Positions 43,056-60,869 of a stretch of DNA of 61,048 nt are shown here, one piece after another (the stretch's first letter is position 1; every line of letters begins with the position of its first letter). A program made the position numbers and the translations under genes. The notes below the pieces were generated by a model, which saw nothing but the letters and a program-made list of their open reading frames with translations, was not told the DNA's origin and did no database searches. Source of the DNA: Vicinamibacteria bacterium (GTDB lineage Bacteria; Acidobacteriota; Vicinamibacteria; Fen-336); the NCBI GenBank assembly GCA_025923995.1, contig JAICEW010000003.1:1-61048 (forward strand), given 5' to 3'.

Positions 43056-43370
43056 ATGGCCGAGCGTGACGGAAAGACCGACGGACAGGTCCTGGAGAAG
43101 ACGCGGACGCGGACGAAGAAGCCCCAGCTCTTCCGCGTCATCCTGCACAACGACGACTACACGACGATGCAGTTCGTGATCGAGGTGCTGGAGGGCATCT
43201 TCCACAAGTCGCCGGCCGAGGCGCACCGGATCATGATGCACGTGCACACCCAGGGGCACGGCGTGTGCGGCGCGTACCCCTACGAAGTGGCCGAGACCAA
43301 GGTGGGCCAGGTGCACGAAAACGCCCGGTCCCAGGGCTTCCCCCTGCGGGCCAGCCTGGAAGAGGAGTAG
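43056..43370 (+). CDS. clpS: ATP-dependent Clp protease adaptor
   Basis: VILHNDDYTTMQFV, MHVHTQG, FPLRASLE. Confidence 0.96.
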   Translation: MAERDGKTDGQVLEKTRTRTKKPQLFRVILHNDDYTTMQFVIEVLEGIFHKSPAEAHRIMMHVHTQGHGVCGAYPYEVAETKVGQVHENARSQGFPLRASLEEE

Positions 43371-43380
43371 CGGCGAAGCG

Positions 43381-45675
<2,295 letters not shown>

Positions 45676-47140: not shown

Positions 47141-48222
47141 GAGGCTCGTGCGCGCCGCGACGGTGCGACGTCCGCGTACACGGCATGCAGGCGGGCCATG
47201 AGCGGCTCGCGCTCGAATCCGGCCGGTGCTTCCGCGCGGCATCCGGCCAGCGCGCGGATGGCGCGCGCCAGCGCGGGCACGTCGCCCCACGACACGAGCC
47301 CGTCGCCGGGATGCCACTCGCGCACTCCCCCGCTGTCCCACGCGGCCACCGGCACGCCGCTCGCGAGCGCTTCGAGCCCCGCGATGCCGAACGGCTCCTG
47401 CCAGCGCGAGGCCATGACCAGCACACGCGCGTGCGCATGCAGCGCGGCCAGCCCGTCGCGGCCCACCCAGCCGACCACGCGCGCGCCCAGACGCTCGAGC
47501 TCCGGCCGCAGCGGGCCCGCGCCGGCGACGACGAGCGGAAGGTCCACGCCCGACTCGCGCCAGGCACGGGCGGCTTCGAGCGGGCCCTTGCCCGCGACCA
47601 GGCGGCCCACGAACAGCACGCAGCCGGGCCCGTCCGGCGCGACTCGCGGAAGGCTCCGCACGAACGGTGCGACGACAGTCACGCGCGCGCCCTCCAGGCC
47701 CGCCGCCACCAGCTCGTCGCGCATGTACCGCGAGAGCACGACGACGCGCAGCCCCGCGAGCGCCTCGAACCGCTCGCGGGTGACGCCCCGGATCTCCTCG
47801 AAGTAGGACGCGTCCTCGAAGCACGTCGCGCAGGCCTCGGGCGACGGCGCGACGCGGCAGACCTCGCCTGTGAGCGTCCACTTGCCGCGCCCGGGGCAGA
47901 AGTAGCGATGGTCCTGCACCGTGATCACGGCGTCGTGTCCGCTCGCCCAGCGCAGCACCGCCGGGTTGACCACGGTGTGCAGGTGGATCACCTCGGGCTC
48001 CAGCTCGTCAGCGAGCGCATCGAGCTCGACGGATACGCTCGTCCGCGCGTCGAGCCCCGGGACCGTGCGCACCGGGCAGGGGGATGCGATTCCCTCTTCG
48101 GCCCCTCCGACCGCGAGCGTGACCTCGTGCTCCTGCTCGACCTGCGCTTCCACCACGCCGAGCAGGTGCTGGTACGCGCCGCCGCGGGCGCTGAGGCGGT
48201 CGCCCAGGTGCAGGATGCGCAT
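47137..48222 (-). CDS. GT4-family glycosyltransferase
   Basis: MRILHL, LFVGRL..KG, EPFGIAGLEALASGVPV. Confidence 0.9.
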   Translation of the reverse strand: MRILHLGDRLSARGGAYQHLLGVVEAQVEQEHEVTLAVGGAEEGIASPCPVRTVPGLDARTSVSVELDALADELEPEVIHLHTVVNPAVLRWASGHDAVITVQDHRYFCPGRGKWTLTGEVCRVAPSPEACATCFEDASYFEEIRGVTRERFEALAGLRVVVLSRYMRDELVAAGLEGARVTVVAPFVRSLPRVAPDGPGCVLFVGRLVAGKGPLEAARAWRESGVDLPLVVAGAGPLRPELERLGARVVGWVGRDGLAALHAHARVLVMASRWQEPFGIAGLEALASGVPVAAWDSGGVREWHPGDGLVSWGDVPALARAIRALAGCRAEAPAGFEREPLMARLHAVYADVAPSRRARAS

Positions 48223-48270
48223 CGCGACCATGATGCCATGCGCGGCGGCCCGTTCGCGGATAATCCGCCC

Positions 48271-49881
48271 ATGCCCGAGGCGCCGCGGACCGAGGCGACG
48301 GTCGTGATCGAGGAGGGGCGCCGTCTCTCGGAGTCGCTCATCTGGCGGCTGCAGCGCGGCTTCTACGCGCGCGCGGGGCTGGCCGCCTGGAAGCCGAAGG
48401 CGGTCCCGTTCTACATCACCAGCAACGCGTTCACGGCGCGCGCCTACGCGCGCACCGTGGCCGGGTTCCTGCGCGACCTGGTGGCCGCCGGGCAGGTCGA
48501 CCGCACGGCGCCGGTCCACCTGGTCGAGCTGGCGGCGGGCTCGGGCCAGTTCGCCTGCTTCTTCCTCCGCCGGCTGGCCGAGATCCAGGAGGAGGTGCCG
48601 TCCCTCGCCGGCCTGGACCTCCGCTACGTCATGACCGACTTCGCGGAGAGCAACGTCGCGGCGTGGGAGGCGCACGAGAGGCTGGCTCCGTTCCAGGACC
48701 AGGGGCGGCTCGACTTCGCGCTGTTCGACCTGGAGCGCGACCGCGAGCTGCGGCTGCGCCGCGCCGGGGTCACGCTGTCGGCGGGATCCGTGGCCAACCC
48801 GATGGTGCTCCTCGCGAACTACGCGTTCGACTCGACCACCCAGGACGCCTTCCAGGTGCAGGACGGCGTCCTCCACGAGCGGCTGGCGCGCGTGCTCTCG
48901 ACCCAGGAGGAGCGGGACCTGGACGATCCCGGCCTGCTCCAGCGCATCCAGGTGCGCTACGACCTGGCGCCGGTGGACGAGACCAAGCGCTACGAGGACC
49001 CGCGCCTGCGCTCCCTGCTCGAGGGATACCGGCGCGACTACGCGGAAGCCTCGTTCCTCCTCCCGCTGGGCGCGTTCCGCTGCGTGCGCACCTTCGAGGC
49101 CCTGTGCGGCGGGCGGCTCCTGCTGCTGACCGGGGACAAGGCGATCACGCGCGACGACGAGATCGAGCACGCGAAGGACCCGACGTTCTACATCCACGCG
49201 GGCGGCGCGTTCTCGTTCCTGGCCAACCTGCACGCGCTCGCACGCGGCTTCGAGCAGGCCGGCGGCACCGCCCTCGTGGTGGACCGCCGGGACCAGCGGC
49301 TGAAGGTGGCCGCCCTGCTCACGGCGTTCCCCGGCGTGGAGTGGGACGAGACGCGGCTCGCCTTCCGCCGCTCGCAGGAGGACTTCGGGCCCGCGGACTA
49401 CCACGCGCTCGTGTTCGGGCTGCGCCAGCAGAACGCGACGATGCCGCTGCAGGTGATCCTCTCGCAGCTGCGCCTGGGTGGCTGGGACTACGAGCTCGTC
49501 TTCTCCTGGCGGGACCCGATCGTGAAGCTGGCGCCGCAGGCGCCGGCGTGGCAGCAGGCCGACCTGGCCGACGCGCTCGAGCGCGTGTGGGAGGAGTACT
49601 ACCCGCTCCAGCGCGACCTGGCGTTCGAGCTGGCGCGCATCTTCGTCGTCCTCAAGCGACCCCAGCAGGCCCTGCGCTTCGCCCACGAGTCCCTGCGGAC
49701 GCACGGCCCGCACGAGCTCACGTACCTTTCGATCGCCTACTCGTGCGTGCTGCTGGGCCGCCACGCCGAGGCCGTCTCCTGGCTCGACCGTGCGCTGGAG
49801 CTCACGCCCGACAACCCCGCGGTCGCCTCGCTGCGGGCGACCCTGCTCAAGGGCAGCGCGGGTTCCGGGCCGGACGCCTAG
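48271..49881 (+). CDS. SAM-dependent methyltransferase (MidA/NDUFAF7-like) with C-terminal TPR
   Basis: VPFYITSN, LVELAAGSGQF, YVMTDF, ANYAFDS; TPR tail ALELTPDN. Confidence 0.7.
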   Translation: MPEAPRTEATVVIEEGRRLSESLIWRLQRGFYARAGLAAWKPKAVPFYITSNAFTARAYARTVAGFLRDLVAAGQVDRTAPVHLVELAAGSGQFACFFLRRLAEIQEEVPSLAGLDLRYVMTDFAESNVAAWEAHERLAPFQDQGRLDFALFDLERDRELRLRRAGVTLSAGSVANPMVLLANYAFDSTTQDAFQVQDGVLHERLARVLSTQEERDLDDPGLLQRIQVRYDLAPVDETKRYEDPRLRSLLEGYRRDYAEASFLLPLGAFRCVRTFEALCGGRLLLLTGDKAITRDDEIEHAKDPTFYIHAGGAFSFLANLHALARGFEQAGGTALVVDRRDQRLKVAALLTAFPGVEWDETRLAFRRSQEDFGPADYHALVFGLRQQNATMPLQVILSQLRLGGWDYELVFSWRDPIVKLAPQAPAWQQADLADALERVWEEYYPLQRDLAFELARIFVVLKRPQQALRFAHESLRTHGPHELTYLSIAYSCVLLGRHAEAVSWLDRALELTPDNPAVASLRATLLKGSAGSGPDA

Positions 49882-50624
49882 GGCTGTGGCTGGCGCAGCC
49901 GGCGCGAGATCCAGACCGTCCGGTGCGCTGCGGTCACGAACGTTCCGGCGGCGATGAGGGCCAGGATCCAGGTGGAGAGGCTCCCCAGCGGCAGGCCCCA
50001 CCGCGCGGCCACCATGCGGTCCAGCCAGCAGGACAGGATGGTCAGCACCAGCCGCTCGGCGCGCTGCATGAGCCCTTCCTTGCAGAGCACGCCCAGCGAC
50101 TCGCCGCGCGCGCGCGTGTAGCTCACGAGGAGCGAGCCGGCCATGGCGGCCGCGGCGATTGCGGAGCCGTACGGCGTCCGGCGCAGGAACACCGCGAAGC
50201 CGAGCAGCGCGAACACCTCGACGAAGCGGTCGAGCGTGCTGTCGATGAACTTGCCGTACTTCGAGTCGACCTTGGTGGCTCGCGCCACCCGGCCGTCCAT
50301 GATGTCGCACACGCCGCCCGCCGCGATGGCCCAGCCGCCCGCTTCCAGGTGGCCCAGGGCGATCAGGACGCCGCTCACGGCCCCGCACACGAGGCCCGCG
50401 ACGTTGAACACGTCCGGCCCCCAGCCCGCGCGCAGGGCCAGGCGGTCGAGCGGGCCCAGCACCCACATGAACCAGTGCACGAGGAAGTTGCCCGCTCCCA
50501 GGGCGAACTGCGCGCCCTTGCGCTCGGCGTCGGCGTCCACGCGGCGGCCGGCCACGGCGTAGGCGGCCATCGACACCAGGGCCAGCCCCAGCACGACCAC
50601 GAACGCCAGCACGCTCCCCTGCAT
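49878..50624 (-). CDS. CDP-alcohol phosphatidyltransferase (PIP-synthase-like)
   Basis: DIMDGRVAR...GKFIDSTLDRF; SYTRARGESLG...GLMQRAERL. Confidence 0.9.
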   Translation of the reverse strand: MQGSVLAFVVVLGLALVSMAAYAVAGRRVDADAERKGAQFALGAGNFLVHWFMWVLGPLDRLALRAGWGPDVFNVAGLVCGAVSGVLIALGHLEAGGWAIAAGGVCDIMDGRVARATKVDSKYGKFIDSTLDRFVEVFALLGFAVFLRRTPYGSAIAAAAMAGSLLVSYTRARGESLGVLCKEGLMQRAERLVLTILSCWLDRMVAARWGLPLGSLSTWILALIAAGTFVTAAHRTVWISRRLRQPQP

Positions 50625-51604
50625 CAGCGGTCCTTGTGGCGGAAGTAGCGGAAGACGCGCGGCCACAGGAACAGGAGCGGAAGCCGCCGCTCCCGTGGCG
50701 TCAGCTCGATGTCCTGGCCGCTGTGGCGGCGGACCTTGCGCAGGATGAACTCCAGCCAGTCGTCGAAGGTCACGACGTACTTGGCCCAGCGTGCGGTCGC
50801 ACGCACCTTGGACCACTTGAAGTAGAACGCGAGCCGCAGCCGCTCGAGCCGCCCGGCCGGCTCCGCCACGGCGAAGACGCCCGGCTCCACCTCCCGCAGC
50901 GCTCCGCTCGCGCACAGCTCGCGCAGCAGGACGCCGTAGACCGGCCGCAGGTAGTCCTGCTGCGCCTCGAACAGCGCGCGGGTGCGGTCGCTCGACTCGG
51001 GGCGGAACTCCGCGGCGAAGGAGACCCGCAGCATCGTCCGGCAGTACTCTTCCACGTCGAAGCGCGCGGGCAGCCACGGCCGCGCCCACTCGTACGTGAG
51101 GGCGTGCGCGCCGGCCAGGGCGTCCACCACCTCCTCGCGCGCGGCCTGCTCCGGGGCCGCCGCGATCTCGGTCTGCTGGCACAGCCGGCCCAGGAAGAAG
51201 TGGTCGTGCCGCCGGCGCGACGTCTCGCGCAGGAACGCGGACAGCGACACCACCGCGCACTTGGCCCGCGCACCGCGCCCGTCCGGCAGCGTCATCGTGA
51301 TCCCGATCTGGTTGGGCGGCAGAGGCGCGTTCAGCGCGGCGACCAGCCACGCGGGGCGCCGGAGCGCGCCGTGGGCGCGCAGCGACGCGTAGAAGGGGCC
51401 GTACCCGCGCACGATCACGAAGAAGTCGTACGCGCTCCAGGCGTCCGGACTGGCGCGCGACTTGCGCGAGCCGAAGAACACGACCGCCGCCACCGACCCG
51501 CCGCCGCGCTGGCACAGGCCTGCCGCCAGCTCCGCCGCGTCGCCCCTGGGCGTTCCGCACACCCGCTGGCGCACGGCCTCGCGCAGGGCGTCAAGCGGCG
51601 CCAT
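50624..51604 (-). CDS. Tam41/Mmp37-like lipid-phosphate cytidylyltransferase (NTase fold)
   Basis: FFGS..YDFFVIV; AKCAVVS...FFLGRLCQ; VSFAAEFR.E parallel the Tam41 motifs YGS, IDF, KYGVVS, LAGRLQK, LSYxGDxR. Confidence 0.65.
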   Translation of the reverse strand: MAPLDALREAVRQRVCGTPRGDAAELAAGLCQRGGGSVAAVVFFGSRKSRASPDAWSAYDFFVIVRGYGPFYASLRAHGALRRPAWLVAALNAPLPPNQIGITMTLPDGRGARAKCAVVSLSAFLRETSRRRHDHFFLGRLCQQTEIAAAPEQAAREEVVDALAGAHALTYEWARPWLPARFDVEEYCRTMLRVSFAAEFRPESSDRTRALFEAQQDYLRPVYGVLLRELCASGALREVEPGVFAVAEPAGRLERLRLAFYFKWSKVRATARWAKYVVTFDDWLEFILRKVRRHSGQDIELTPRERRLPLLFLWPRVFRYFRHKDR

Positions 51605-52361
51605 CGGCCCTCATCCGCGAGAGGTGCTCCTGGATGCGCGCGCGCAGCTCCTGCACGAACGCGGGCACGTCCTCTTCGCGCGCCGGAGGCGCGACGGTGC
51701 CGAGCGCGTCGGTGCGCACTGTCAGCCCATGCACGTTGAACACGAAGTCCACCAGCCGGCGCGTCTTCCAGCCTCCGTCGGTCACCACGATCTGTACGGG
51801 CATGGGGTGGGCCCCCAGCGTGGCCTGCGCTCCGCCCGTCTTGAACGGCTGGACCTCGCCGTCCTTGCTGCGGTGTCCCTCCGGGAACAGTATCAGGCCG
51901 TGGCGCTGCCGCGGCGCCGCCTCGCGCACGGCGGCCAGCGATCCGCGCGGGTCGCGCTTGGGGTCCACGATGGGCCCGCCCAGCATGCGCACGCAGGGCG
52001 ACACCGCGGGGATGAACCGCGCGTAGCGCGAGCGCGTGACGAACGCGGGCACGTACGGCTCCGACATCATGGTGAGGCTCAGGATGTCGACGAGCGACTG
52101 GTGGTTCATGACGATCAGGACGGGCGACTCGGTGCGGATGACGCCTGTGCGCACGAAATGGGCGCCCCCCAGGCGCAGCAGGTGCAGGAGGCCGCCCGCC
52201 ATGATCTTCATGTAGCGCGAGAGGTAGGCGCGCTGTCGCGAGGGCCGCAGCAGCGCGGCGGGCCGCAGCCACAGGTACATCATCAAGGGGCCTGGGATGA
52301 CGAGGTAGATGAGGACCGCCAGGACCGACAGGACGCTCCTGAGCGCTCGGAGGAGGGCCAC
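51591..52361 (-). CDS. PlsC-family lysophospholipid acyltransferase
   Basis: NHQSLVD (HxxxxD), LFPEGHRS, FKTG. Confidence 0.88.
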   Translation of the reverse strand: MALLRALRSVLSVLAVLIYLVIPGPLMMYLWLRPAALLRPSRQRAYLSRYMKIMAGGLLHLLRLGGAHFVRTGVIRTESPVLIVMNHQSLVDILSLTMMSEPYVPAFVTRSRYARFIPAVSPCVRMLGGPIVDPKRDPRGSLAAVREAAPRQRHGLILFPEGHRSKDGEVQPFKTGGAQATLGAHPMPVQIVVTDGGWKTRRLVDFVFNVHGLTVRTDALGTVAPPAREEDVPAFVQELRARIQEHLSRMRADGAA

Positions 52362-52372
52362 GCCGCTCCCCG

Positions 52373-53281
52373 CTAGGCGCCGGCGGACGCCGGCACCAGG
52401 ACGCGCAGCGCGCGCGGCAGCGTCTCGATCTCGAGCTCGGCGCTCTGGGCCTGGTTCCACTCGCCGTCCGTCTCGTAGGCCGGCGGGCGGTCGAAGCGGA
52501 GGCGGAACGACGTCCCGGCGAAGCTGGCGACGCTCGCGGCGCGCGCGTGCGTGCCGCGCAGCAGGCGCACCAGCAGCTCCACGCGCCCGGGCAGGCGAGC
52601 GTTGCCGAACGAGCTCACGTCCAGCCTCCCGTCGCCCAGGTCGGCCCCGGGCGCGATCTTGAAGCCGCCGCCGAAGACGCGGCCGTTCGCGAGGATCAGC
52701 ATCAGCAGGTCCCGCCTGCCCTGGCTCACGCCGTCCGCCTCGACCTCGACCGAGAAGCCCCGGTACGAGCCCAGCTGCTTGAGCGCGCAGTACAGGTACA
52801 GCAGCTCGCCCTGCAGCCACGTGACCCGCCAGGAGTCCTCGATGACCGCGATGTCGTAGCCGAAGCCGGCGCAGTTGAGGAAGTATCGTCCCTCGATGCG
52901 CCCGACGTCGATCGCGCGCACCACGCCGTCGTGCACGATGGCGGCGCAGGCCGCCACGTCCTTCGGGGGGATGCCGAGCGACTTGGCCAGGTCGCAGCCG
53001 GTGCCGCCCGGCACCAGCCCCAGGGCCACGGGCTGCCCCGAGCGCAGGACGCCGCGGGCCACGTTGCTCCACGTGCCGTCACCGCCCACCGCGACCACCT
53101 TGCGGAACCCGCTGGCCACGGCGCGCTCCGCCAGCTCCGCCTCGTGCCCGGCCTGCGCCGTGAGCGCGTGCTCGATGGTCGTGCCCGGACGCGCGAGCGC
53201 CTCCAGCACCGGCCGCACCAGGCGTGCGCCGCGCCCCTTCCCGGACCTGGGGTTGAAGACGACGAAGACCGGCTCGCCCAA
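52373..53281 (-). CDS. Diacylglycerol/sphingosine/ceramide kinase family lipid kinase
   Basis: NPRSG, VGGDGT, PGGTGCDLA, NGRVFGGG, TDGE. Confidence 0.92.
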   Translation of the reverse strand: MGEPVFVVFNPRSGKGRGARLVRPVLEALARPGTTIEHALTAQAGHEAELAERAVASGFRKVVAVGGDGTWSNVARGVLRSGQPVALGLVPGGTGCDLAKSLGIPPKDVAACAAIVHDGVVRAIDVGRIEGRYFLNCAGFGYDIAVIEDSWRVTWLQGELLYLYCALKQLGSYRGFSVEVEADGVSQGRRDLLMLILANGRVFGGGFKIAPGADLGDGRLDVSSFGNARLPGRVELLVRLLRGTHARAASVASFAGTSFRLRFDRPPAYETDGEWNQAQSAELEIETLPRALRVLVPASAGA

Positions 53282-53291
53282 GCGGACGGCC

Positions 53292-53969
53292 TTACGAGGC
53301 TGTCTCGAGCGTGACCAAAGGATCGAAGGTCTGCTGGCCGTCCCGCATCCACAGCTCGCGGAACGGGACCTCGTAGACCTCGGAGATCATCAGGTCCTTG
53401 TTGAAGGGATGGTCGAAGAGCTGGATGCGGCCCGTCTCCTCCTCGTGCTCGCTCTGGCTGCCTTCCATCACGATGTTGGCCAGGAACGCGCCCTCCTCGT
53501 CCTTCATGAACGACTGGTAGAGGTGGCTCACGGGGTTCCAGGAGTGGTCGGAGATGGTCATCTCCGCGACGGGAGCGCCGCCCACGCCCACGCTGGCCGT
53601 GATGCGGCGGCCCTCGTGCGCGAAGGACATCTGGACGTCCTCCATCCAGTGCGGCAGGTGCCAGCGCTCGATGGCGTGCTCGCGCGCGGCCCTGGTGGTC
53701 GTCCCCACCAGGTAGGGGTAGAACGCGGACTTGGGCAGCCGCTCGCCCGGCTTCACCAGCGGGGCCACGATCACCGACATCACGACCTCGCCGTACGTGC
53801 CGACCATGCTCTCGGTGAAGTCGAACGCGGTCATCGAGAAGATGCTGGTGCCGTGGTGCAGCTCGACCGGCTCCAGGTGCGAGGGCAGGATGCGGCGCGC
53901 GTTTTCGGTCGGAAACTCGAAGAAGCCGCTGATGGCGTGCTTGTAGCCGTAGCGCGTCAGGTCCGACAC
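53292..53969 (-). CDS. Acetoacetate-decarboxylase-fold protein lacking the Schiff-base Lys
   Basis: ARRILPSHLEP, VGTYGEV, AIERWHLPH (ADC pattern GRExWGxPK with K replaced by H). Confidence 0.6.
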   Translation of the reverse strand: MSDLTRYGYKHAISGFFEFPTENARRILPSHLEPVELHHGTSIFSMTAFDFTESMVGTYGEVVMSVIVAPLVKPGERLPKSAFYPYLVGTTTRAAREHAIERWHLPHWMEDVQMSFAHEGRRITASVGVGGAPVAEMTISDHSWNPVSHLYQSFMKDEEGAFLANIVMEGSQSEHEEETGRIQLFDHPFNKDLMISEVYEVPFRELWMRDGQQTFDPLVTLETAS

Positions 53970-55240
53970 ACGCCCTCTTCGCGGAGCACGCCGGCGATCA
54001 CCTGCGCGGCGCGCTCGAGCTGCCCCTCGGTGTGGGCGGCCGACACGGAAACGCGCAGCCGCGACTTGTGCTTGGGCACGGCGGGATACGTCACGGGCTG
54101 CAGGTACAGGCCGCGGTCCTGCACCTTCTCGGCGACCGCGAACACCTTGCTGTCGTTGTTCACCAGCACCGGCATCACCTGGGAGGTGGACTTGCCGATG
54201 TCGACGCCCTCCTCGGCGAAGCGGCGGCGGAGGTAGGCCACGTTGCTCCACAGCTTCGTGCGCAGCTGCGGCTCGTCCTCGACGATCTTCATCCCCGCGA
54301 GCAGGCCGGCCGCGACCGGCGGCGCCAGGTTGCAGGAGAAGAACCGCGAGCGCCCGAACGCGTTCACGTAGTCGATCAGGTCCTTCGAGCCGCAGACGAA
54401 CCCGCCCTGGCCGCCCAGGCTCTTCGAGAACGTGCCCAGGTGGAAGTCCACTTCCTTGTCGAGGCCGAAGTGCTCGGCCACGCCGCGCCCGTTGGGCCCG
54501 AACAGGAAGGTGGAGTGCGCCTCGTCGATCAGGAGGCGCGCGCCATGGCGCTTCGCCACCTCGACGATCTCGGGCAGCACGCAGACGTCGCCGTCCATGG
54601 AGTAGACGCCCTCGACGACGACGAGCTTCTTGCCGCGGACGCCCTTGATCTTGCGCTCCAGGTCGAGCGGGTTGTTGTGGCGGAAGAACACCGTCTTCGA
54701 CTTGGCCAGGATGGCGCCGTCCACGACCGAAGCGTGCGCGTACTGGTCGCAGAAGATGGTGTCGCCCGAGCGCATCAGCGCGGAGATGAAGCCGACGTTC
54801 GCGCTGTACCCGGTCGGGAAGACGATGGCCGCTTCCTTGTCCTTGAAATCCGCCACGGCCTTCGCCAGCTGGTTGTGGACCTCGAGCGTGCCCGAGAGGA
54901 TCGGCGAGCCCGAGGCGCCGAGGCCGTACTGGCGCGTGGCCTCGATGGCCGCCTCCTTGACCTCTTCGCGCGTCGAGATGCCCAGGTAGTTGTAGGACGC
55001 GAGGTTCAACAGGTCCTGGACCTCGCCCGTCTTCCGGTTCCGGACGCGCACCTCGGTGGTGGGCGCGCTCTGCAGCGGCTCGGAGTACAGGTAGTACCCG
55101 GCCGGCAACGCCTCCTTGTACCAGGTACTGAACGGCTTCAGCAGGTTGACCGGGTCGTCCCCGGCGCCGTAGTAGAAGTTGCTGTAGTCGTAGTCCGAGA
55201 AGACGGATCTTTCGGGGTCCTGTTTGGGGGCCGCGCTCAT
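53957..55240 (-). CDS. spt: Serine palmitoyltransferase-like PLP alpha-oxoamine synthase
   Basis: NLASYNYLG, HASVVDG, EGVYSMDGD, DEAHS, GTFSKSLG; lipid-gene context; ATG 55240 preferred over GTG 55327 because of promoter position. Confidence 0.78.
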   Translation of the reverse strand: MSAAPKQDPERSVFSDYDYSNFYYGAGDDPVNLLKPFSTWYKEALPAGYYLYSEPLQSAPTTEVRVRNRKTGEVQDLLNLASYNYLGISTREEVKEAAIEATRQYGLGASGSPILSGTLEVHNQLAKAVADFKDKEAAIVFPTGYSANVGFISALMRSGDTIFCDQYAHASVVDGAILAKSKTVFFRHNNPLDLERKIKGVRGKKLVVVEGVYSMDGDVCVLPEIVEVAKRHGARLLIDEAHSTFLFGPNGRGVAEHFGLDKEVDFHLGTFSKSLGGQGGFVCGSKDLIDYVNAFGRSRFFSCNLAPPVAAGLLAGMKIVEDEPQLRTKLWSNVAYLRRRFAEEGVDIGKSTSQVMPVLVNNDSKVFAVAEKVQDRGLYLQPVTYPAVPKHKSRLRVSVSAAHTEGQLERAAQVIAGVLREEGVCRT

Positions 55241-55330
55241 ATTCCAGTTCTCTCCCGTGGTCCCGACTGCCTCGGTCACCCTCTTGGCAGTGGGCGTGAG
55301 TTCCGAAAGGCGGTCCGGCGTAAACACGGA

Positions 55331-55358
55331 AGTGTAGCAGGGCGCGCCGCGATCTCAA
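55331..55358 (-). promoter_or_regulatory. Sigma70 promoter for the spt operon
   Basis: TTGAGA-N16-TACACT with extended TG. Confidence 0.6.
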
Positions 55359-55384
55359 AGCCCCATTGGTTGGGGCCTTGAGGG

Positions 55385-56173
55385 TCAGTGCCCCTGCGGG
55401 CTGGGCTGGAAGAGCTTCGCGCCGATCCGGCGGACGAGCCAGCCGGGCGTGAGGGGGACGAGCGCCGACAAGACGCGGTTGGAGAGCCCAGGCACCACGC
55501 GCAGGCTGCCGCGCTCGATCCCGCGTATGGACGCGGCCGCGACCGCGGCCGGTGTCATCGATCCCGTGCGGTTGAAGGGCACGCGGTCGGTGCCGGCGAC
55601 TCCCTGGAACTCGGTGGCGGTGAGCCCAGGGCACAGCGCCTGGACGATCACCCCCGTGTCCTTGAGCTCCGTCGCCAGCGCCTCCGTGAGCGAGAGCAGG
55701 AACGCCTTGCTCGCACCGTACACCGCGAGGAACGGGACGGGCTGGAACGCCGACGTGGAGACGACGTTCACCACGACGCCCTGGCGCCTGGCGACCATGT
55801 CCGGAAGGAACAGACGCGTCATCATCATCGCGGCGCGCGCGTTGACGTCCAGGATGTTCTGGATCGCGGCCAGGGGCTCCTGCTCGAAGCGGCCGGTGTG
55901 CCCGAGGCCCGCGTTGTTCACGAGCACGTCGACCGCGAGGCCGCGGGCGCGGACCCCTTCGTACACGCGCTGGGGCCCCTCGGGCGCGGCCAGGTCCGCC
56001 GCCACCACCTGCACGTCCCCGCCCAGCTCGCTCGCCAGGGCGCGCAGGCGCTCCTCGCGGCGCGCGACCAGCACCAGCGCACATCCCCGTGCGTGGAGAG
56101 CCCGCGCGTAGGCCTCGCCGATGCCGCTGCTGGCCCCCGTGACCAGGGCCCGGCGGCCCGCGAGGCGGCTCAC
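55385..56173 (-). CDS. Classical SDR oxidoreductase
   Basis: TGASSGIG, ARR (NADPH preference), NNAG, YGASK; GTGA overlap with the radical SAM gene. Confidence 0.9.
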   Translation of the reverse strand: MSRLAGRRALVTGASSGIGEAYARALHARGCALVLVARREERLRALASELGGDVQVVAADLAAPEGPQRVYEGVRARGLAVDVLVNNAGLGHTGRFEQEPLAAIQNILDVNARAAMMMTRLFLPDMVARRQGVVVNVVSTSAFQPVPFLAVYGASKAFLLSLTEALATELKDTGVIVQALCPGLTATEFQGVAGTDRVPFNRTGSMTPAAVAAASIRGIERGSLRVVPGLSNRVLSALVPLTPGWLVRRIGAKLFQPSPQGH

Positions 56174-57195
56174 CCGGCGAGCACCTCGTCCTTGCGGCCC
56201 GCCGGCGCCGTGCCGACCGGCGCGGCCGCCTGCGCCTTCTGGGGGCTGCGCCAGTTGTCGAACAGCGCGACGCGCTGCGCGCAGTTGACCGTGCAGAAGG
56301 GCGCGCAGCTCTTCGGCGTGTCGTACTCGCGGCGCAGATCGCCCTTGGTGTAGGCCTCGAGCGGGATCCCCGGGCTGCCGCGCATCTGCGAGCAGTAGCT
56401 CACGAGCCCGGACTCGTCGACGTACAGGTAGCGCGAGCCCGCCCGGCAGCTCCAGCTGTTGGACCGCCCCGCCGCCAGGTTGTCCTGGAACCTCGCGTTG
56501 GCGCGCGTGTCGCCGCGGCTGCCGAACTGCTTCAGCCCCTCGTAGACCGCGAGCTCGCGTGCGGAGAGGGGCTTGAGCTGCCCGTGGCCGTCGTGGAGGA
56601 TGCCGACGGAGCTGGTGAAGCCCAGCTCGCGCGCGCGGCGCGCCACCGCCAGCGCGTCCTCGGGGTGGCTGACGCCGGCGCCCACGACCGAGTTGATGTT
56701 GACGCCGAACAGCGCGAGCTCGGCCAGCCACTTGAGCTTGGGCTCCAGCAGGCGGAGGCTCTTGAGCGACACCTCGTCGGGCTCCACGTTGTCCACGCTG
56801 ATCTGCAGGTAGTCCAGCCCGGACCGGTTGAGGCGCTCGATGCGCTCGGGCGAGAGGTGGTAGCCGTTGGTGATGATCGACGAGATCATGCGGCGCTCGC
56901 GCGCGTGGGCGATCATCGCGTCCAGCTCCGGGTGGAGCATCGGCTCCCCGCCGCTGAACGTGATCATGGACGTGCCGAGCGCGGCCAGCAGGTCCAGCCG
57001 GCGCAGGACCAGCGGCAGCGGCACCGGCTTCGACACCGCGTCGTACTCGTTGCAGTAGGTGCAGGACAGGTTGCAGCGGCGGATCGGCACCACGTGCGCC
57101 AGCAGCGGGTGACGCCGATCGAGGAAGGCCCACGCGACCTTGCCCGCGACGCGGGTCAGGCGCGACGCACGGCGCAGCAATCTCCGGTTCGTCAG
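56170..57195 (-). CDS. Radical SAM enzyme with C-terminal Cys-rich (twitch/SPASM-like) domain
   Basis: CNLSCTYC, SGGEP, TNG; CRAG...YCSQ...CAPFCTVNC; probable CTG start 7 nt after GGAGG (TTG 57180 is an alternative). Confidence 0.88.
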   Translation of the reverse strand: MTNRRLLRRASRLTRVAGKVAWAFLDRRHPLLAHVVPIRRCNLSCTYCNEYDAVSKPVPLPLVLRRLDLLAALGTSMITFSGGEPMLHPELDAMIAHARERRMISSIITNGYHLSPERIERLNRSGLDYLQISVDNVEPDEVSLKSLRLLEPKLKWLAELALFGVNINSVVGAGVSHPEDALAVARRARELGFTSSVGILHDGHGQLKPLSARELAVYEGLKQFGSRGDTRANARFQDNLAAGRSNSWSCRAGSRYLYVDESGLVSYCSQMRGSPGIPLEAYTKGDLRREYDTPKSCAPFCTVNCAQRVALFDNWRSPQKAQAAAPVGTAPAGRKDEVLAG

Positions 57196-57359
57196 CTTGG
57201 GTCCTCCACTTCGGGTGAGGTTTCGATGATATAGCACATGCCGCGCGCACGCCGCCGCGTCGCGAGTTCTTGACGCGGCAGACCCGGGGCGGCTATCGTC
57301 CGGCGTTTTGGGACGACGCCGCGGGGCGCGTCGGTCGACCGGAGGCACGAAGGCAGCGC

Positions 57360-57974
57360 ATGGGACTGTTCGCGAAGCTGGTCGAGCGCATCTCGGACAA
57401 CCCGGTGCTGTTCATCCTCTGCCGGCGCATCCTCGAGAACGACTTCAAGGCCATCCGCGCCCTGATCCGCCGCGACCTCAAGGTGCGCGCCGGGCTGCGC
57501 ACGCTCGACCTCGGCTGCGGACCCGGCGCCTTCGCCCACATCTTCGAGGGCGACCCCTACGTCGGCGCCGATCTGAACGCCCGCTACATCGCGCACGCCC
57601 AGCGCAAGTGCCCGGGCACCTTCGTCGTGGGCGACGCGCGGAAGCTCGACCTGCCCGGCCGCTCGTTCGACCAGGTGCTCATCTTCGGGATGCTCCACCA
57701 CCTCTCGGACGACGACGCGCGCGCGGTCCTGGGCGAGGTGGTGCGCCTGCTGGTCCCCGGCGGGCGCCTGCTCGTGATCGAGGACATCCCCGCCGTCTCG
57801 AAGCTCAACCTGATCGGCCACCTGATCCACAACGTCGAGAACGGCGAGCACATCCGGCCGACCGAGGAGTACCGCCGCCTCTACTCTGAGGCCGCGCGGG
57901 TCGAGCGCGAGGAGATCCTGCAGAGCGGGATCTGCGACTACTACGCCGCCGTGCTCGTGACGCCCACCAGCTGA
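57360..57974 (+). CDS. Class I SAM-dependent methyltransferase
   Basis: LDLGCGPG, GDA, SFDQV..LHH, LVPGG; TTGACG-N18-TATCGT upstream (57270-57299). Confidence 0.88.
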   Translation: MGLFAKLVERISDNPVLFILCRRILENDFKAIRALIRRDLKVRAGLRTLDLGCGPGAFAHIFEGDPYVGADLNARYIAHAQRKCPGTFVVGDARKLDLPGRSFDQVLIFGMLHHLSDDDARAVLGEVVRLLVPGGRLLVIEDIPAVSKLNLIGHLIHNVENGEHIRPTEEYRRLYSEAARVEREEILQSGICDYYAAVLVTPTS

Positions 57975-57978
57975 CGCC

Positions 57979-60012
57979 GTGACCGACGCGCCGAACCCGC
58001 CGGCCCGGCCGCTCCGCTCGTGGGCGGGCGCGGTGCTGCTGGTGGCCCTGGCGGCGCTGGCTCTCCCCCTCGCCGCGGCGCGAGTGGCGCGGCCGCTGCT
58101 CATCAACCTGGGGCCGAACGACGTCGACTACACGCACGGCTTCCGTGAGGACTGGGAGCGCGACGGTCGCACCCGCTTCCACTGGACCACGCTGGCCTCG
58201 ACCCTCCGCCTGCCGCTCCGACTGGACGGCGACGGACACGTGCTGCGCATGCGCGTGCGCCGCCATTTCATTGAGCCAGCTCAGGTTACATTGATCGAAT
58301 CCGGCCGCGTGTTCGCGCGGTTCGAGATCGCCGCCGACACCAAGGTTCCCTACCGGACCCTCGAGTTCCCACTCCCACGGCTCGATTCCCGCGGCCCGCT
58401 CGAGATCCAGATCCACTCCGCGTCCGAGAGCGAGCGCCCTCTCGGGCTCGCGATCGACTGGGTCGAGATCGTGCCGGCGTCTCCCTTCGCTCCGCTGCCC
58501 GCGACGCGCCTGGCGCTGCTCGCGTTCGCGCTCGCGGGGGCGCTCGCGGTCTGGGGCGCGGGTGGCGGACTGCGCTTCGGGGCGGCGGTGGGACTCCTGA
58601 GCGCGCTGGCGGGCGCCTGCGGCCTCGCGCTCGACGCGATCGCCACCGAACGTATCCTGCGCGAGGGATGCGTGGCGTACGTCGTCGTCGCCGCCCTCAC
58701 CTGCGGCGTCCTCTCCTGGCCACGCGCGCGCCGCGTGATCTCGGTCGAGCGCGGTCCGTGGTCCGCCGCGCTCGCGACGCTCGTGCTGCTGGCGCTCGCG
58801 GTCCGCCTCGTGGTCGTCCTGCACCCCGGCTTCTACTACCCCGACGTCAAGGTGCACGCGCTCTTCGCCTGGCAGCTCGCGCGCCGGGGGCTCGTCGAGT
58901 TCCTCCGCGACTTCACTGCGAACCAGTACCGCTACAGCCTGGGCCTGCAGTTCGAGTCCGGGCACTGGTACGCCTTCCCCTATCCGCCCGCGTTCTACAT
59001 CCTGACGTGGCCTCTCACCGCCTGGGCCCGCGTCCGTCCCGAGGTAGCGGTGTCGCTCGTCGCCGCCGTCGCGAACAGCCTGGAGGCGCTGGTCGTCTTC
59101 GCCATCGCGCGCCGGCTCCGTCGATCGGTCGCGGTCGCGCTCGCGGCCGCAGCGTGCCTGCCGCTGCTGCCGATCTTCCTCGTGCGCCTCAGCCTCGCGT
59201 ACTTCCCCGCCCTCGTCGGGCACGCGATCGACTCGCTGGTGCTGTTCGTGCTCGTCGCGCGGCTCCGCGAGTTCGCGCGACCCCGCGTGATCGTGGGCTT
59301 CGCGGTGCTGCTCGCGGCCGCGCTGCTCACGTATACGCAGTCGATCCTCAACTTCGCAGTGATACTTCCCCTGTTCCTGCTCGTGGAGCTCGCGACCGAG
59401 CGCCCGTGGAAGCGCATGCTCGGGCTCGCGGGCGCGAGCCTGCTCGGCGTCGTCCTCTCGCTCGCGGTGTTCTACGGCCGCTACGTGCCGATCGCGCTCG
59501 ACATGATGCGCGGCGTGCCGATGCCGGAGGAGCAGGTCCTGATCGAGAAGCAGGAGCGCGAGCGGGCCAGTCGGGCGCCCGTCGAAGAGAACGCGGAGCG
59601 CACGCCCGAGGATCCGTACGCGGGTCCCGGCGTCGATCCCGTGCGCGGGCTGCGCAAGGCGGGATGGCGGATGTGGGTGTTCTACGGACCCTTCGCGCTG
59701 GCCGTCATCGCTGGCCTGGCGCTGCTTGGGCGGACGCTCGAGGGCGCGCTGCTCCGCTTCACGATCACGTGGGCGGCGACCTACGTCGTGCTGAACCTGC
59801 TCTCGGGCGGGCTGCCGGGGCCGAACCTCGTTCGGTACAACAAGGACCACGAGGTGGTGGCGCCACTCTTCTGCGTCGCGATCGCCGTGGTGGGTGCGTG
59901 GCTCTGGAGGCGGTCGCGGTGGCTCGCGATCGCATACGCGGGTGCCTTCGTGGCGTACGCCACGATGCGCGGCTGGTCGGCCTGGATGGCGCGCTTCGTC
60001 CTCGAGCGCTGA
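57979..60012 (+). CDS. Polytopic membrane protein, putative GT-C-fold glycosyltransferase
   Basis: Many TMs, loop YYPDVKVH, FPYPPAFY; family assignment inferred. Confidence 0.55.
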   Translation: MTDAPNPPARPLRSWAGAVLLVALAALALPLAAARVARPLLINLGPNDVDYTHGFREDWERDGRTRFHWTTLASTLRLPLRLDGDGHVLRMRVRRHFIEPAQVTLIESGRVFARFEIAADTKVPYRTLEFPLPRLDSRGPLEIQIHSASESERPLGLAIDWVEIVPASPFAPLPATRLALLAFALAGALAVWGAGGGLRFGAAVGLLSALAGACGLALDAIATERILREGCVAYVVVAALTCGVLSWPRARRVISVERGPWSAALATLVLLALAVRLVVVLHPGFYYPDVKVHALFAWQLARRGLVEFLRDFTANQYRYSLGLQFESGHWYAFPYPPAFYILTWPLTAWARVRPEVAVSLVAAVANSLEALVVFAIARRLRRSVAVALAAAACLPLLPIFLVRLSLAYFPALVGHAIDSLVLFVLVARLREFARPRVIVGFAVLLAAALLTYTQSILNFAVILPLFLLVELATERPWKRMLGLAGASLLGVVLSLAVFYGRYVPIALDMMRGVPMPEEQVLIEKQERERASRAPVEENAERTPEDPYAGPGVDPVRGLRKAGWRMWVFYGPFALAVIAGLALLGRTLEGALLRFTITWAATYVVLNLLSGGLPGPNLVRYNKDHEVVAPLFCVAIAVVGAWLWRRSRWLAIAYAGAFVAYATMRGWSAWMARFVLER

Positions 60013-60026
60013 AGCGCGCGAGGCCG

Positions 60027-60861
<835 letters not shown>

Positions 60862-60869
<8 letters not shown>

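Follow-up and report, generated by a model that had tools for sequence, protein, structure and literature searches.

A conserved Vicinamibacteria gene cluster with an SPT-like alpha-oxoamine synthase, a Tam41-fold enzyme and a PIP-synthase-like transferase: a candidate second phospholipid line

The described systems closest to the locus reported here are the ceramide head-group pathways of Caulobacter and Bacteroides. According to the available excerpts of the Caulobacter papers, an LCB5-type ceramide kinase (CpgB), a protein without recognizable domains (CpgC), a PgsA-domain protein (CpgA), and a CTP:phosphoglycerate cytidylyltransferase (CpgD) operate there (PMC9393093, PMC13228409, PMC11324152). 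In Bacteroides, as the excerpted source describes it, inositol phosphate reaches ceramide via phosphatidylinositol and an AUR1-like synthase (PMC9246714). Neither system, within those excerpts, uses a Tam41-fold enzyme or a partner protein of the acetoacetate decarboxylase (ADC) fold. Here we analyzed a 61,048-nucleotide stretch of DNA from a Vicinamibacteria bacterium (assembly GCA_025923995.1, contig JAICEW010000003.1, positions 1 to 61,048; hereafter the window), in which both kinds of protein are encoded in a cluster of eight minus-strand genes (g1 to g8) around an alpha-oxoamine synthase (AOS).

In the direction of transcription, the cluster encodes a radical S-adenosylmethionine (SAM) protein (g1), a classical short-chain dehydrogenase/reductase (SDR; g2), the AOS (g3), the ADC-fold protein (g4), a YegS/BmrU/DgkB-type lipid kinase (g5), a PlsC-family acyltransferase (g6), a Tam41-fold nucleotidyltransferase (g7), and a CDP-alcohol phosphatidyltransferase resembling phosphatidylinositol-phosphate (PIP) synthases (g8). 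An initial annotation, made from the letters alone, had interpreted these genes as a self-contained alternative route to a phosphosphingolipid. That interpretation was right in outline and is partly supported: Tam41-fold and PIP-synthase-like enzymes surround an SPT-like synthase in a conserved lipid-building cluster. We propose, tentatively and at slightly short of an even chance, that the cluster encodes a second phospholipid line with an amino-acid-derived long-chain backbone, a lipid-activated sphingoid route parallel to the glycerolipid line.

The Caulobacter parallel drawn in the initial annotation, a CpgB kinase of the LCB5 type together with the PgsA-domain CpgA, agrees with the excerpted source (PMC9393093). 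In both systems a kinase of the DAGK/LCB5 superfamily is associated with an AOS-derived lipid, a CDP-alcohol transferase-family enzyme takes part in forming an anionic head group, and between kinase and transferase stands a protein that lacks recognizable domains, namely CpgC there and g7 here (PMC9393093, PMC11324152, as far as excerpted). Unlike in Caulobacter, the AOS belongs to another clade, and the ADC-fold partner has no counterpart there. Whereas CpgD is described in the excerpts as CDP-activating the head group, the Tam41 fold here suggests that the lipid is activated. A further difference concerns ceramide formation. A genome-wide tblastn search with the Sphingomonas acyl carrier protein (ACP) and presumed bacterial ceramide synthase (bCerS), a single-query search of limited reach, gave no match at E <= 1e-3; the bCerS reference was identified solely by synteny with CC_1154 next to lptF/lptG, and its GNAT match was weak. 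For CerR, we found on another contig (C14:36518-37474) a generic protein of the NAD(P)H-binding NmrA type, with 37% full-length identity to the Sphingomonas CerR-type reductase. The initial annotation's remark that bCerS, CerR and ACP were absent from the window thus extends genome-wide for bCerS and ACP within the reach of this search, and is qualified for CerR by this generic protein.

The Bacteroides thetaiotaomicron cluster contains MIPS (BT_1526), PIP synthase (BT_1523), PgpA (BT_1525) and an AUR1-like synthase (BT_1522). Both organisms have MIPS and a PIP-synthase-type enzyme, and the likely end product here, an inositol-phosphoryl sphingolipid, would belong to the same class. Unlike in Bacteroides, the PIP-synthase paralogue here has an AOS, a kinase and a Tam41-fold enzyme as its neighbors, an arrangement suggesting that a CDP-activated sphingoid lipid is the direct donor.

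We examined conservation in 41 related genomes (the window's own included), 23 of them of high quality, and compared 14 stretches from relatives by tblastn, together with four Gemmatimonadota loci. The named homologues of the cluster proteins came from Vicinamibacteria and Acidobacteriota metagenome-assembled genomes, in line with the earlier suggestion of an acidobacterial source, and the cluster was conserved across the window's order, the named relatives being Vicinamibacteria. Copies of g7 were found in 36 of the 41 genomes (22 of the 23 high-quality ones) and copies of g4 in 37 (all 23). Of 301 evenly sampled Acidobacteriota genomes, only three carried g4, all of them from the window's family; relatives of the ADC-fold protein numbered 1502 in the protein collection. 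Thirteen of the 14 stretches shared the order AOS, ADC-fold, kinase, (PlsC), Tam41-like, transferase, the fourteenth (L024) having broken frames. PlsC was present in 11 stretches (missing in L016, L021 and L050), an SDR adjoined the AOS in 10, with a partial copy in the broken stretch, and the radical SAM gene was present in seven.

In all four Gemmatimonadota loci, the AOS and ADC-fold genes lay on one strand and the Tam41-like and transferase genes were divergent; the kinase followed the AOS/ADC-fold pair in the three loci that did not end at a contig edge. Identities to the window's proteins were 59-62% for the AOS, 46-48% for the ADC-fold protein, 38-40% for the kinase, 36-39% for the Tam41-like protein and 42-44% for the transferase; across the Vicinamibacteria loci, g3 identity was 77-86%. 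No SDR, PlsC or radical SAM gene was found nearby in any of the four. The core is five genes, encoding the AOS, the ADC-fold protein, the YegS-type kinase, the Tam41-like protein and the PIP-synthase-like transferase, which stand together in two phyla; the SDR, PlsC and radical SAM genes are accessory. This synteny supports the initial annotation, which had named a lack of conservation as an outcome that would count against it. Its suggestion that the PlsC enzyme may be a new type of ceramide synthase was weakened as regards an obligatory role, because PlsC, like the SDR and the radical SAM protein, is missing from the core; it was absent from all four Gemmatimonadota loci and from several Vicinamibacteria ones. 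Outside these groups, a Polyangia locus carried a 33%-identical Tam41-like gene at a contig end, with unrelated genes downstream.

The AOS gene g3 (53957..55240, minus strand, 427 aa) matched Pfam Aminotran_1_2 with 192 bits. Its residues H169, D239, H242 and K273 aligned with the catalytic residues of the references (the stacking histidine, the Asp and His of DEAHS, and the pyridoxal phosphate lysine). The best solved relative was Sphingobacterium Spt (3a2b, 297.7 bits), followed by Thermus AOS (243), Sphingomonas Spt (237), ALAS (217), Kbl (209) and BioF (181 bits). On curated models, g3 scored about equally on those for bioF, Spt-CFB and BioF/Kbl, and below every cut-off; the values were 359.6 bits for bioF (cut-off 426.45) and 329 for Kbl (cut-off 460). 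The only other AOS in the genome is a true Kbl (581 bits against a cut-off of 460), and searches of the genome gave neither a BioB score above the cut-off nor any BioD.

We then placed g3 in phylogenetic trees together with E. coli BioF and Kbl, Alicyclobacillus BioF, Sphingomonas Spt (encoded beside ACP and a CerR-type gene), and Spt-type genes of Parabacteroides and Prevotella. Of 150 representatives, 137 were used and 13 were dropped because fewer than 320 of their residues aligned. The careful IQ-TREE analysis covered 66 hand-picked rows from every FastTree clade, with only three Spt references. BioF and Kbl fell outside a 56-row clade holding g3 (support 99/100), and the three Spt references formed part of a 12-row group (85/99) inside the same clade. 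With its Vicinamibacteria and Gemmatimonadota orthologues, g3 formed a 9-row clade (99/96) within a 22-row clade (100/100). A position of Kbl near the g3 superclade in the FastTree analysis (153 rows) was weakly supported and disagreed with the IQ-TREE runs, and was rejected. Identification of g3 as BioF or Kbl was likewise rejected, as it scored below both cut-offs and both enzymes lay outside the 56-row clade; the initial annotation had named such a grouping as the outcome that would count against it. By these sequence comparisons, g3 is an SPT-like AOS of an uncharacterized clade, neither BioF nor Kbl nor a member of the known Spt group.

With the bacterial Spt enzymes of the Sphingomonas and Bacteroidota types, g3 shares the AOS fold, the catalytic residues and the major clade that excludes BioF and Kbl, at 35-38% identity to the references. 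It differs from them in belonging to the separate 22-row clade, in having no adjoining ACP, CerR or bCerS gene, and in a clade-specific N-terminal extension at about residues 14-40 (YDYSNFYYGAGDDP). Among the 1.84 billion representatives of a sequence library, there was a sharp drop in identity to g3, from some 50% down to some 40%. The nearest representatives (>50% identity) included fusions of PP-binding and AOS domains and of AMP-binding, PP-binding and AOS domains, an arrangement in which the acyl group would arrive on a carrier after fatty-acid activation; this suggests that the substrate of g3 is a fatty acyl-carrier. A metagenome scan with one fusion of AMP-binding, PP-binding and AOS domains (P0125) returned only relatives of its fatty-acyl-AMP ligase. 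Five of the 80 loci had an AOS, of 35-38% identity, and none of the 80 had an ADC-fold or Tam41-like gene.

The ADC-fold gene g4 (53292..53969, minus strand, 225 aa) overlaps the stop of g3 by 13 nt. The AOS and ADC-fold genes were adjacent at every locus, often with overlapping stop and start, and stayed paired even in the reduced variants described below. The g4 protein scored 27.7 bits on Pfam ADC (PF06314), just below the 29.8 cut-off, and a g4-family profile found no ADC among PDB sequences. Its AF2 model (pLDDT 91.8) had the ADC double-barrel fold in Foldseek, with MppR, Sbi00515 and ADC as top matches (E 2e-10, TM 0.58-0.68); 24 PDB chains were matched at E <= 0.001, and the listed ones were all ADC, MppR, Sbi00515 or Swit_4259. 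A Schiff-base catalytic lysine defines the acetoacetate decarboxylase family. Among 26 g4 orthologues from two phyla, no lysine was invariant or nearly so, and the Schiff-base mechanism of the family therefore cannot apply to g4. The conserved set includes H39, H98, E101, H107, D111, H175, E176, E178, R204 and E205. While the double-barrel fold is shared with ADC, MppR and Sbi00515, g4 thus differs from that superfamily in lacking an invariant lysine, in its Pfam score under the cut-off, and in its predicted docking on an AOS.

This docking was predicted by modeling of the AOS-ADC complex, which scored 0.70 (runs of 0.70, 0.67 and 0.74) versus 0.00 for the best of three controls. In calibration, 58 of 80 solved complexes attained this mark, as did 2 of 110 mismatched pairs; these counts are only rough because self-made alignments were used. 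The runs had at least 74% of their contacts in common, with a partner pLDDT of at least 91. On the AOS, the predicted contacts lie at residues 16-36, within the clade-specific extension, at 166-185, and at 389-392, in a loop that precedes the conserved Arg; on g4 they include the invariant H39, H175, E176 and R204. We know of no solved AOS-ADC complex. On the strength of these models, g4 is a predicted binding partner of g3. Its role is a matter of guesswork: it might assist or complete the condensation, for example by metal-assisted decarboxylation of a beta-keto-acid intermediate, or it might hand over a hydrophobic substrate or product. The initial annotation had the ADC-fold protein tailor the backbone; such a peripheral role was not supported, as the protein is the constant neighbor and predicted binder of the AOS. 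It also lacks a conserved lysine.

The gene g7 (50624..51604, minus strand, 326 aa) was modeled by AF2 from 29 homologues (pLDDT 86). All five chains that Foldseek matched at E <= 0.001 were Tam41 (6ig2, 6ig4, 7ecd), with E-values of 2.7e-7 to 5.7e-5 and a probability of 1.0. The superpositions covered 288-310 columns at TM 0.50-0.64 and 8-15% identity, and included both the nucleotidyltransferase and the C-terminal helical domains; the G-S...D motif was invariant. The Tam41-like label given by the initial annotation is thus sound as a statement about fold and fails as one about sequence family. With Tam41 (Mmp37), the CDP-diacylglycerol synthase of mitochondria and Firmicutes, g7 shares the whole-chain fold and the G-S...D nucleotidyltransferase signature. 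It differs in having no sequence-family match, in coexisting with CdsA, and in being embedded in an AOS cluster, for which reason its substrate may not be phosphatidic acid (PA). The structural match makes g7 a candidate CTP:lipid-phosphate cytidylyltransferase.

The last gene, g8 (49878..50624, minus strand, 248 aa), matched CDP-OH_P_transf with 47.7 bits, and its motif D-x2-D-G-x2-A-R-x8-G-x3-D-x3-D is intact at residues 107-132. Its PDB relatives were the mycobacterial and Renibacterium PIP synthases. The score on the BT_1523-type model NF052561 was 106.7 bits against a cut-off of 350, and that on the CDP-inositol-using DIPP synthase was 49 bits. By sequence, g8 is nearest to PIP and archaetidylinositol-phosphate synthases, consistent with the PIP-synthase-like call of the initial annotation.

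We searched the genome for its ordinary glycerolipid route. A canonical CdsA was found (181 bits), along with six CDP-alcohol transferase paralogues. One paralogue, of the PIP-synthase type, lies in an operon with MIPS (PF01658, 121.6 bits) outside the window (contig C438:2390-4645, L065). It scored 149.8 and 145.4 bits on the PIP-synthase models, above g8 yet below the cut-offs, and g8 was 45% identical to it over a 93-residue core only. MIPS was present in 38 of the 41 relatives and in all five genomes from outside the phylum that carry a Tam41-like gene, compared with 6 of 14 control genomes. As CdsA and the MIPS-PIP-synthase operon lie elsewhere in the genome, the cluster appears to duplicate, with divergent enzymes, the sequence from lipid phosphate to CDP-lipid to inositol-phosphate transfer. 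The simplest reading is that the cluster is a backbone-specific copy of the pathway.

The kinase gene g5 (52373..53281, minus strand, 302 aa) matched DAGK_cat (98.9 bits) and YegS_C (89.6 bits) and exceeded the TIGR00147 cut-off (160.1 versus 118.65 bits). It has GGDG at residue 66, and its PDB relatives are DgkB and YegS. In Parabacteroides distasonis (NZ_OY725812.1, L071), the Spt-type gene and the gene of a 'diacylglycerol kinase family protein' are arranged head to head, so that pairing of an AOS with a DAGK-family gene occurs in a known sphingolipid producer as well. The acyltransferase gene g6 (51591..52361, minus strand, 256 aa) scored 58.6 bits on Pfam Acyltransferase (cut-off 23) and carries HQSLVD (HX4D) at 87, FPEG at 159, and one N-terminal hydrophobic segment. 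The SDR gene g2 (55385..56173, minus strand, 262 aa), with 175 bits on adh_short and no NCBIfam equivalog over cut-off, is a candidate 3-keto reductase.

The families of g5, g7 and g8 could be combined in a second way, of the Kennedy type. Here g8 would move a phospho-head group from a soluble CDP-alcohol onto a hydroxyl of the base or ceramide, g7 would make the CDP-alcohol, and the kinase the alcohol phosphate. There are precedents in the excerpted literature: CpgA and the cytidylyltransferase CpgD, via CDP-glycerate, build the ceramide phosphoglycerates of Caulobacter (PMC9393093, PMC13228409), and for Prevotella a route through CDP-inositol has been put forward (PMC9246714). Moreover, a related genome lacking the Tam41-like gene and the kinase beside its AOS (G011, below) could take a CDP-alcohol from general metabolism. 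We nevertheless regard this scheme as distinctly improbable, given that g7 resembles Tam41, which acts on a lipid substrate, along its entire length and does not match the soluble-alcohol cytidylyltransferases, that g5 falls among lipid kinases with 160 bits, over the TIGR00147 cut-off, and that g8 is nearest to synthases using CDP-lipid donors, with only 49 bits against DIPP synthase.

We resolved the gene boundaries by combining a frame plot of third-position G+C (GC3), a stop-to-stop scan for open reading frames (ORFs), and inspection of start codons. The ORF lists contained many spurious overlapping frames because the G+C content of the window is 73%. The frame plot and lists showed eight consecutive coding stretches on the minus strand from 49878 to about 57200, bounded by a plus-strand gene ending at 49881 and a plus-strand gene starting near 57270. 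Neighboring genes overlap at four junctions (by 4, 13, 14 and 1 nt) and stand 10 and 11 nt apart at two others, while 144 nt separate g2 from g3. A promoter scan of the region gave two sigma-70-like sites versus 0.3 expected in shuffles. One of them, in the g2-g3 gap (55331..55358, minus strand), is TTGAGA-16-TACACT with TG before the -10, a call that is a consensus match only. The near-contiguous gene run and the promoter-bearing gap were thus as the initial annotation had described them. The spacer before the AOS (window 55241-55384) is retained in relatives at 100-150 nt, and in an alignment read by eye, an extended -10-like TGnTAnnAT stood at the same relative place in most of the 14 orthologous upstream regions. 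The retained spacer and this element suggest that g3-g8 are probably under their own promoter, apart from g1-g2. A search of Rfam gave no match in 49000-58500 at E <= 1.

Taken together, the lipid-activated sphingoid route would run as follows. The AOS, probably in a complex with its ADC-fold partner, would condense an amino acid, most likely serine, and a fatty acyl thioester into a 2-amino-3-keto long-chain base, and the SDR, where present, would reduce the 3-keto group. The kinase would then form the 1-phosphate, an analogue of lyso-phosphatidic acid, and the cluster's PlsC or a housekeeping acyltransferase would add the second chain, yielding a PA analogue such as ceramide-1-phosphate. From this and CTP, the Tam41-like enzyme would make a CDP-lipid ('CDP-ceramide'), and g8 would transfer its phospholipid moiety to the myo-inositol-1-phosphate made by MIPS; a phosphatase encoded elsewhere would complete the inositol-phosphoryl lipid. 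The radical SAM protein, the methyltransferase and the 13-segment membrane protein encoded next to the cluster may serve lineage-specific tailoring or export. The gene order kinase, PlsC, Tam41-like, transferase mirrors the series lyso-PA, PA, CDP-diacylglycerol (CDP-DAG), PIP, and would thus place the kinase on the free base and PlsC on the base-1-phosphate. By this analogy we infer that the kinase acts before PlsC, whereas the initial annotation had it act after acylation.

A stronger form of the proposal holds that the sphingoid backbone is processed just as glycerol-3-phosphate is, through a base-1-phosphate, PlsC acylation, a Tam41-fold 'CDP-ceramide' step and a dedicated PIP-synthase paralogue, with the first step carried out by a heteromeric enzyme of the SPT-like protein and the lysine-less ADC-fold protein. 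We consider this possible but rather doubtful.

Several results weigh against the sphingoid route. Every step is predicted from the genes, the core has no N-acyltransferase, and the characterized relatives of the kinase, PlsC, Tam41 and PIP synthase all act on glycerolipids. The initial annotation had called g3 an Spt, and this was not borne out: on the three curated Spt models, g3 reached 359.5 bits for NF047600 (cut-off 640), 336.3 for NF047599 (cut-off 500) and 257.5 for NF047603 (cut-off 670). Its 22-row clade has no characterized member and is separate from the Spt-reference group beside it; nine sampled rows of this clade and one of the neighboring clade gave no NCBIfam match over cut-off. 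For g7 there was no Pfam or NCBIfam match, with none even at E 10 in Pfam, whose models should include one for Tam41, and an invariant Phe (F62) occupies the second carboxylate place of the nucleotidyltransferase motif, which is usually D-x-D/E. g8 stayed below the cut-offs of its best NCBIfam models, with 120.3 bits on archaetidylinositol-phosphate synthase NF040950 (cut-off 180) and 95.1 on PIP synthase NF045883 (cut-off 170). As for the AOS-ADC complex, contact residues 166-185 of the AOS lie near what we take to be the AOS homodimer interface, and since the model contains a single AOS chain, the predicted pose may clash with the homodimer.

Two reduced variants of the cluster also count against the route. 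In the 98%-complete genome G011 (L081, contig C120, 9135-11892), AOS, ADC-fold and transferase genes stand in a row, followed by homoserine dehydrogenase, with no kinase, PlsC or Tam41-like gene beside them; a genome-wide search found no g7 homologue. In the 68%-complete genome G005 (L082, contig C186, 1147-3065), AOS and ADC-fold genes occur alone on a 7.7-kb contig. The ADC-fold proteins of these variants are 43-47% identical to g4 and the AOS proteins 69-82% identical to g3. The G011 arrangement argues against a strictly self-contained route.

Such variants would fit two functions lying side by side. The genes g5-g8 would then form a CdsA-independent glycerolipid salvage route, from diacylglycerol (DAG) through PA and CDP-DAG to PIP, and the AOS-ADC pair would make something unrelated to it, for instance an amino lipid, a signal molecule or a deoxy base. 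The pair indeed occurs without kinase or Tam41-like gene in G011 and alone on the G005 contig, every characterized relative of g5, g6, g7 and g8 is a glycerolipid enzyme, and the conserved promoter-like element speaks for g3-g8 as one unit, not as one pathway. Nonetheless, a duplicate glycerolipid route has no evident reason in a genome that already has CdsA and the MIPS-PIP-synthase operon. The five core genes have stayed together in two phyla despite rearrangement, and the transferase of G011 has remained with the AOS-ADC pair rather than with glycerolipid genes. We therefore judge a combination of two functions unlikely, though by no means negligible. It is the G011 variant and the glycerolipid specificity of the characterized relatives that keep this explanation and the Kennedy-type scheme alive.

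The minimal G011 unit of AOS, ADC-fold protein and transferase can be read in yet another way, with the AOS-ADC product as the acceptor alcohol, that is, as the head group. The transferase would then make a phosphatidyl conjugate from CDP-DAG, with kinase, PlsC and Tam41-like enzyme supplying a dedicated CDP-DAG pool; in G011, CDP-DAG could come from a CdsA such as the one found in the window's own genome. The divergence of g8 from its MIPS-linked paralogue, where 45% identity is confined to the 93-residue core, also speaks for this reading. The closest fused relatives of the AOS, however, carry fatty-acyl-AMP ligase and carrier domains and so point to a long chain rather than a small polar head, MIPS co-occurs wherever this was tested, and we know of no phosphatidyl conjugate of an AOS-derived amino alcohol. 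These points leave the head-group explanation highly improbable, and the lipid-activated sphingoid route remains the reading that we prefer.

The radical SAM gene g1 (56170..57180, minus strand, 336 aa) is assigned the TTG start at 57180, which we preferred because GGAGA lies upstream; in-frame alternatives are CTG at 57195, chosen in the initial annotation, and GTG at 57237. Its product scored 77.8 bits on Radical_SAM and far below the cut-offs of all matched NCBIfam models; it carries a CX3CX2C motif (residues 36-43) and a cluster of cysteines towards the C terminus (292/296/300). Divergent from the cluster lie a class I SAM methyltransferase gene (57270..57974, plus strand, 234 aa; Methyltransf_25, Methyltransf_11) and a gene for a polytopic membrane protein with about 13 hydrophobic segments (57979..60012, plus strand, 677 aa), for which we found no Pfam match and no PDB sequence relative. 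Copies of the methyltransferase (56-73% identity) adjoined the cluster in 7 of the 14 stretches, and copies of the membrane protein (33-53% identity) stood beside it in 10; in one genus (f3), the membrane protein alone abuts the SDR. Both may be accessory genes, and transport or glycosylation by the membrane protein is a guess. At the other end, a gene (47185-49881, plus strand) for an 898-aa protein, which has TPR repeats in its C-terminal part and weakly matches Methyltransf_28, converges on the cluster; in the relatives' stretches it did not turn up next to the cluster. Farther out are an ordinary-looking ParB-family gene (60027-60869, minus strand) and an equally ordinary ClpB-type AAA+ chaperone gene (43237-45675, plus strand).

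Among 17 longer proteins matching g4, several combined AOS, ADC-fold and kinase in 653-770 aa (P0397, P0398, P0400, P0402). We rejected them as genuine fusions, as they were single sequences, mostly on long contigs, and shorter than a true fusion would be expected to be. Fused or split cluster genes (these four, as well as L024/L052 on G012:C3) are most likely assembly indel or frameshift artefacts.

Relatives of the window's genome are common in soil. In each of 16 metagenome runs of soil or roots, drawn from 10 studies, at least half of the sampled words of the stretch were found; in four RNA runs the share was only 5-12%, which gives no evidence of expression. In a soil lipidomics study, according to its available excerpt, five ceramides and phytoceramides correlated with a Vicinamibacteraceae amplicon sequence variant, a correlation only, and the authors asked whether Acidobacteriota make sphingolipids (PMC9969633). 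Our literature searches on sphingolipids and Spt of Acidobacteria and Gemmatimonads, on Tam41 and bacterial sphingolipids, on ADC and Spt, and on Vicinamibacteraceae polar lipids found no description of the cluster.

Several of the cluster enzymes fall in no described family. If the proposed route is correct, it would be the first by which a phosphosphingolipid is made through activation of the lipid itself (as CDP-ceramide), and a third way for a sphingoid lipid to receive its phospho-head group, alongside the transfer from phosphatidylinositol and the CDP-head-group routes. The AOS-ADC pair would represent a new heteromeric enzyme, with an ADC-fold protein docked on the clade-specific N-terminal extension as a new accessory subunit for an alpha-oxoamine synthase, and the bacterial Tam41-fold family that coexists with CdsA would gain its first function. 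For soil, the cluster would supply a source organism and genes for part of the unexplained pool of ceramides and inositol lipids.

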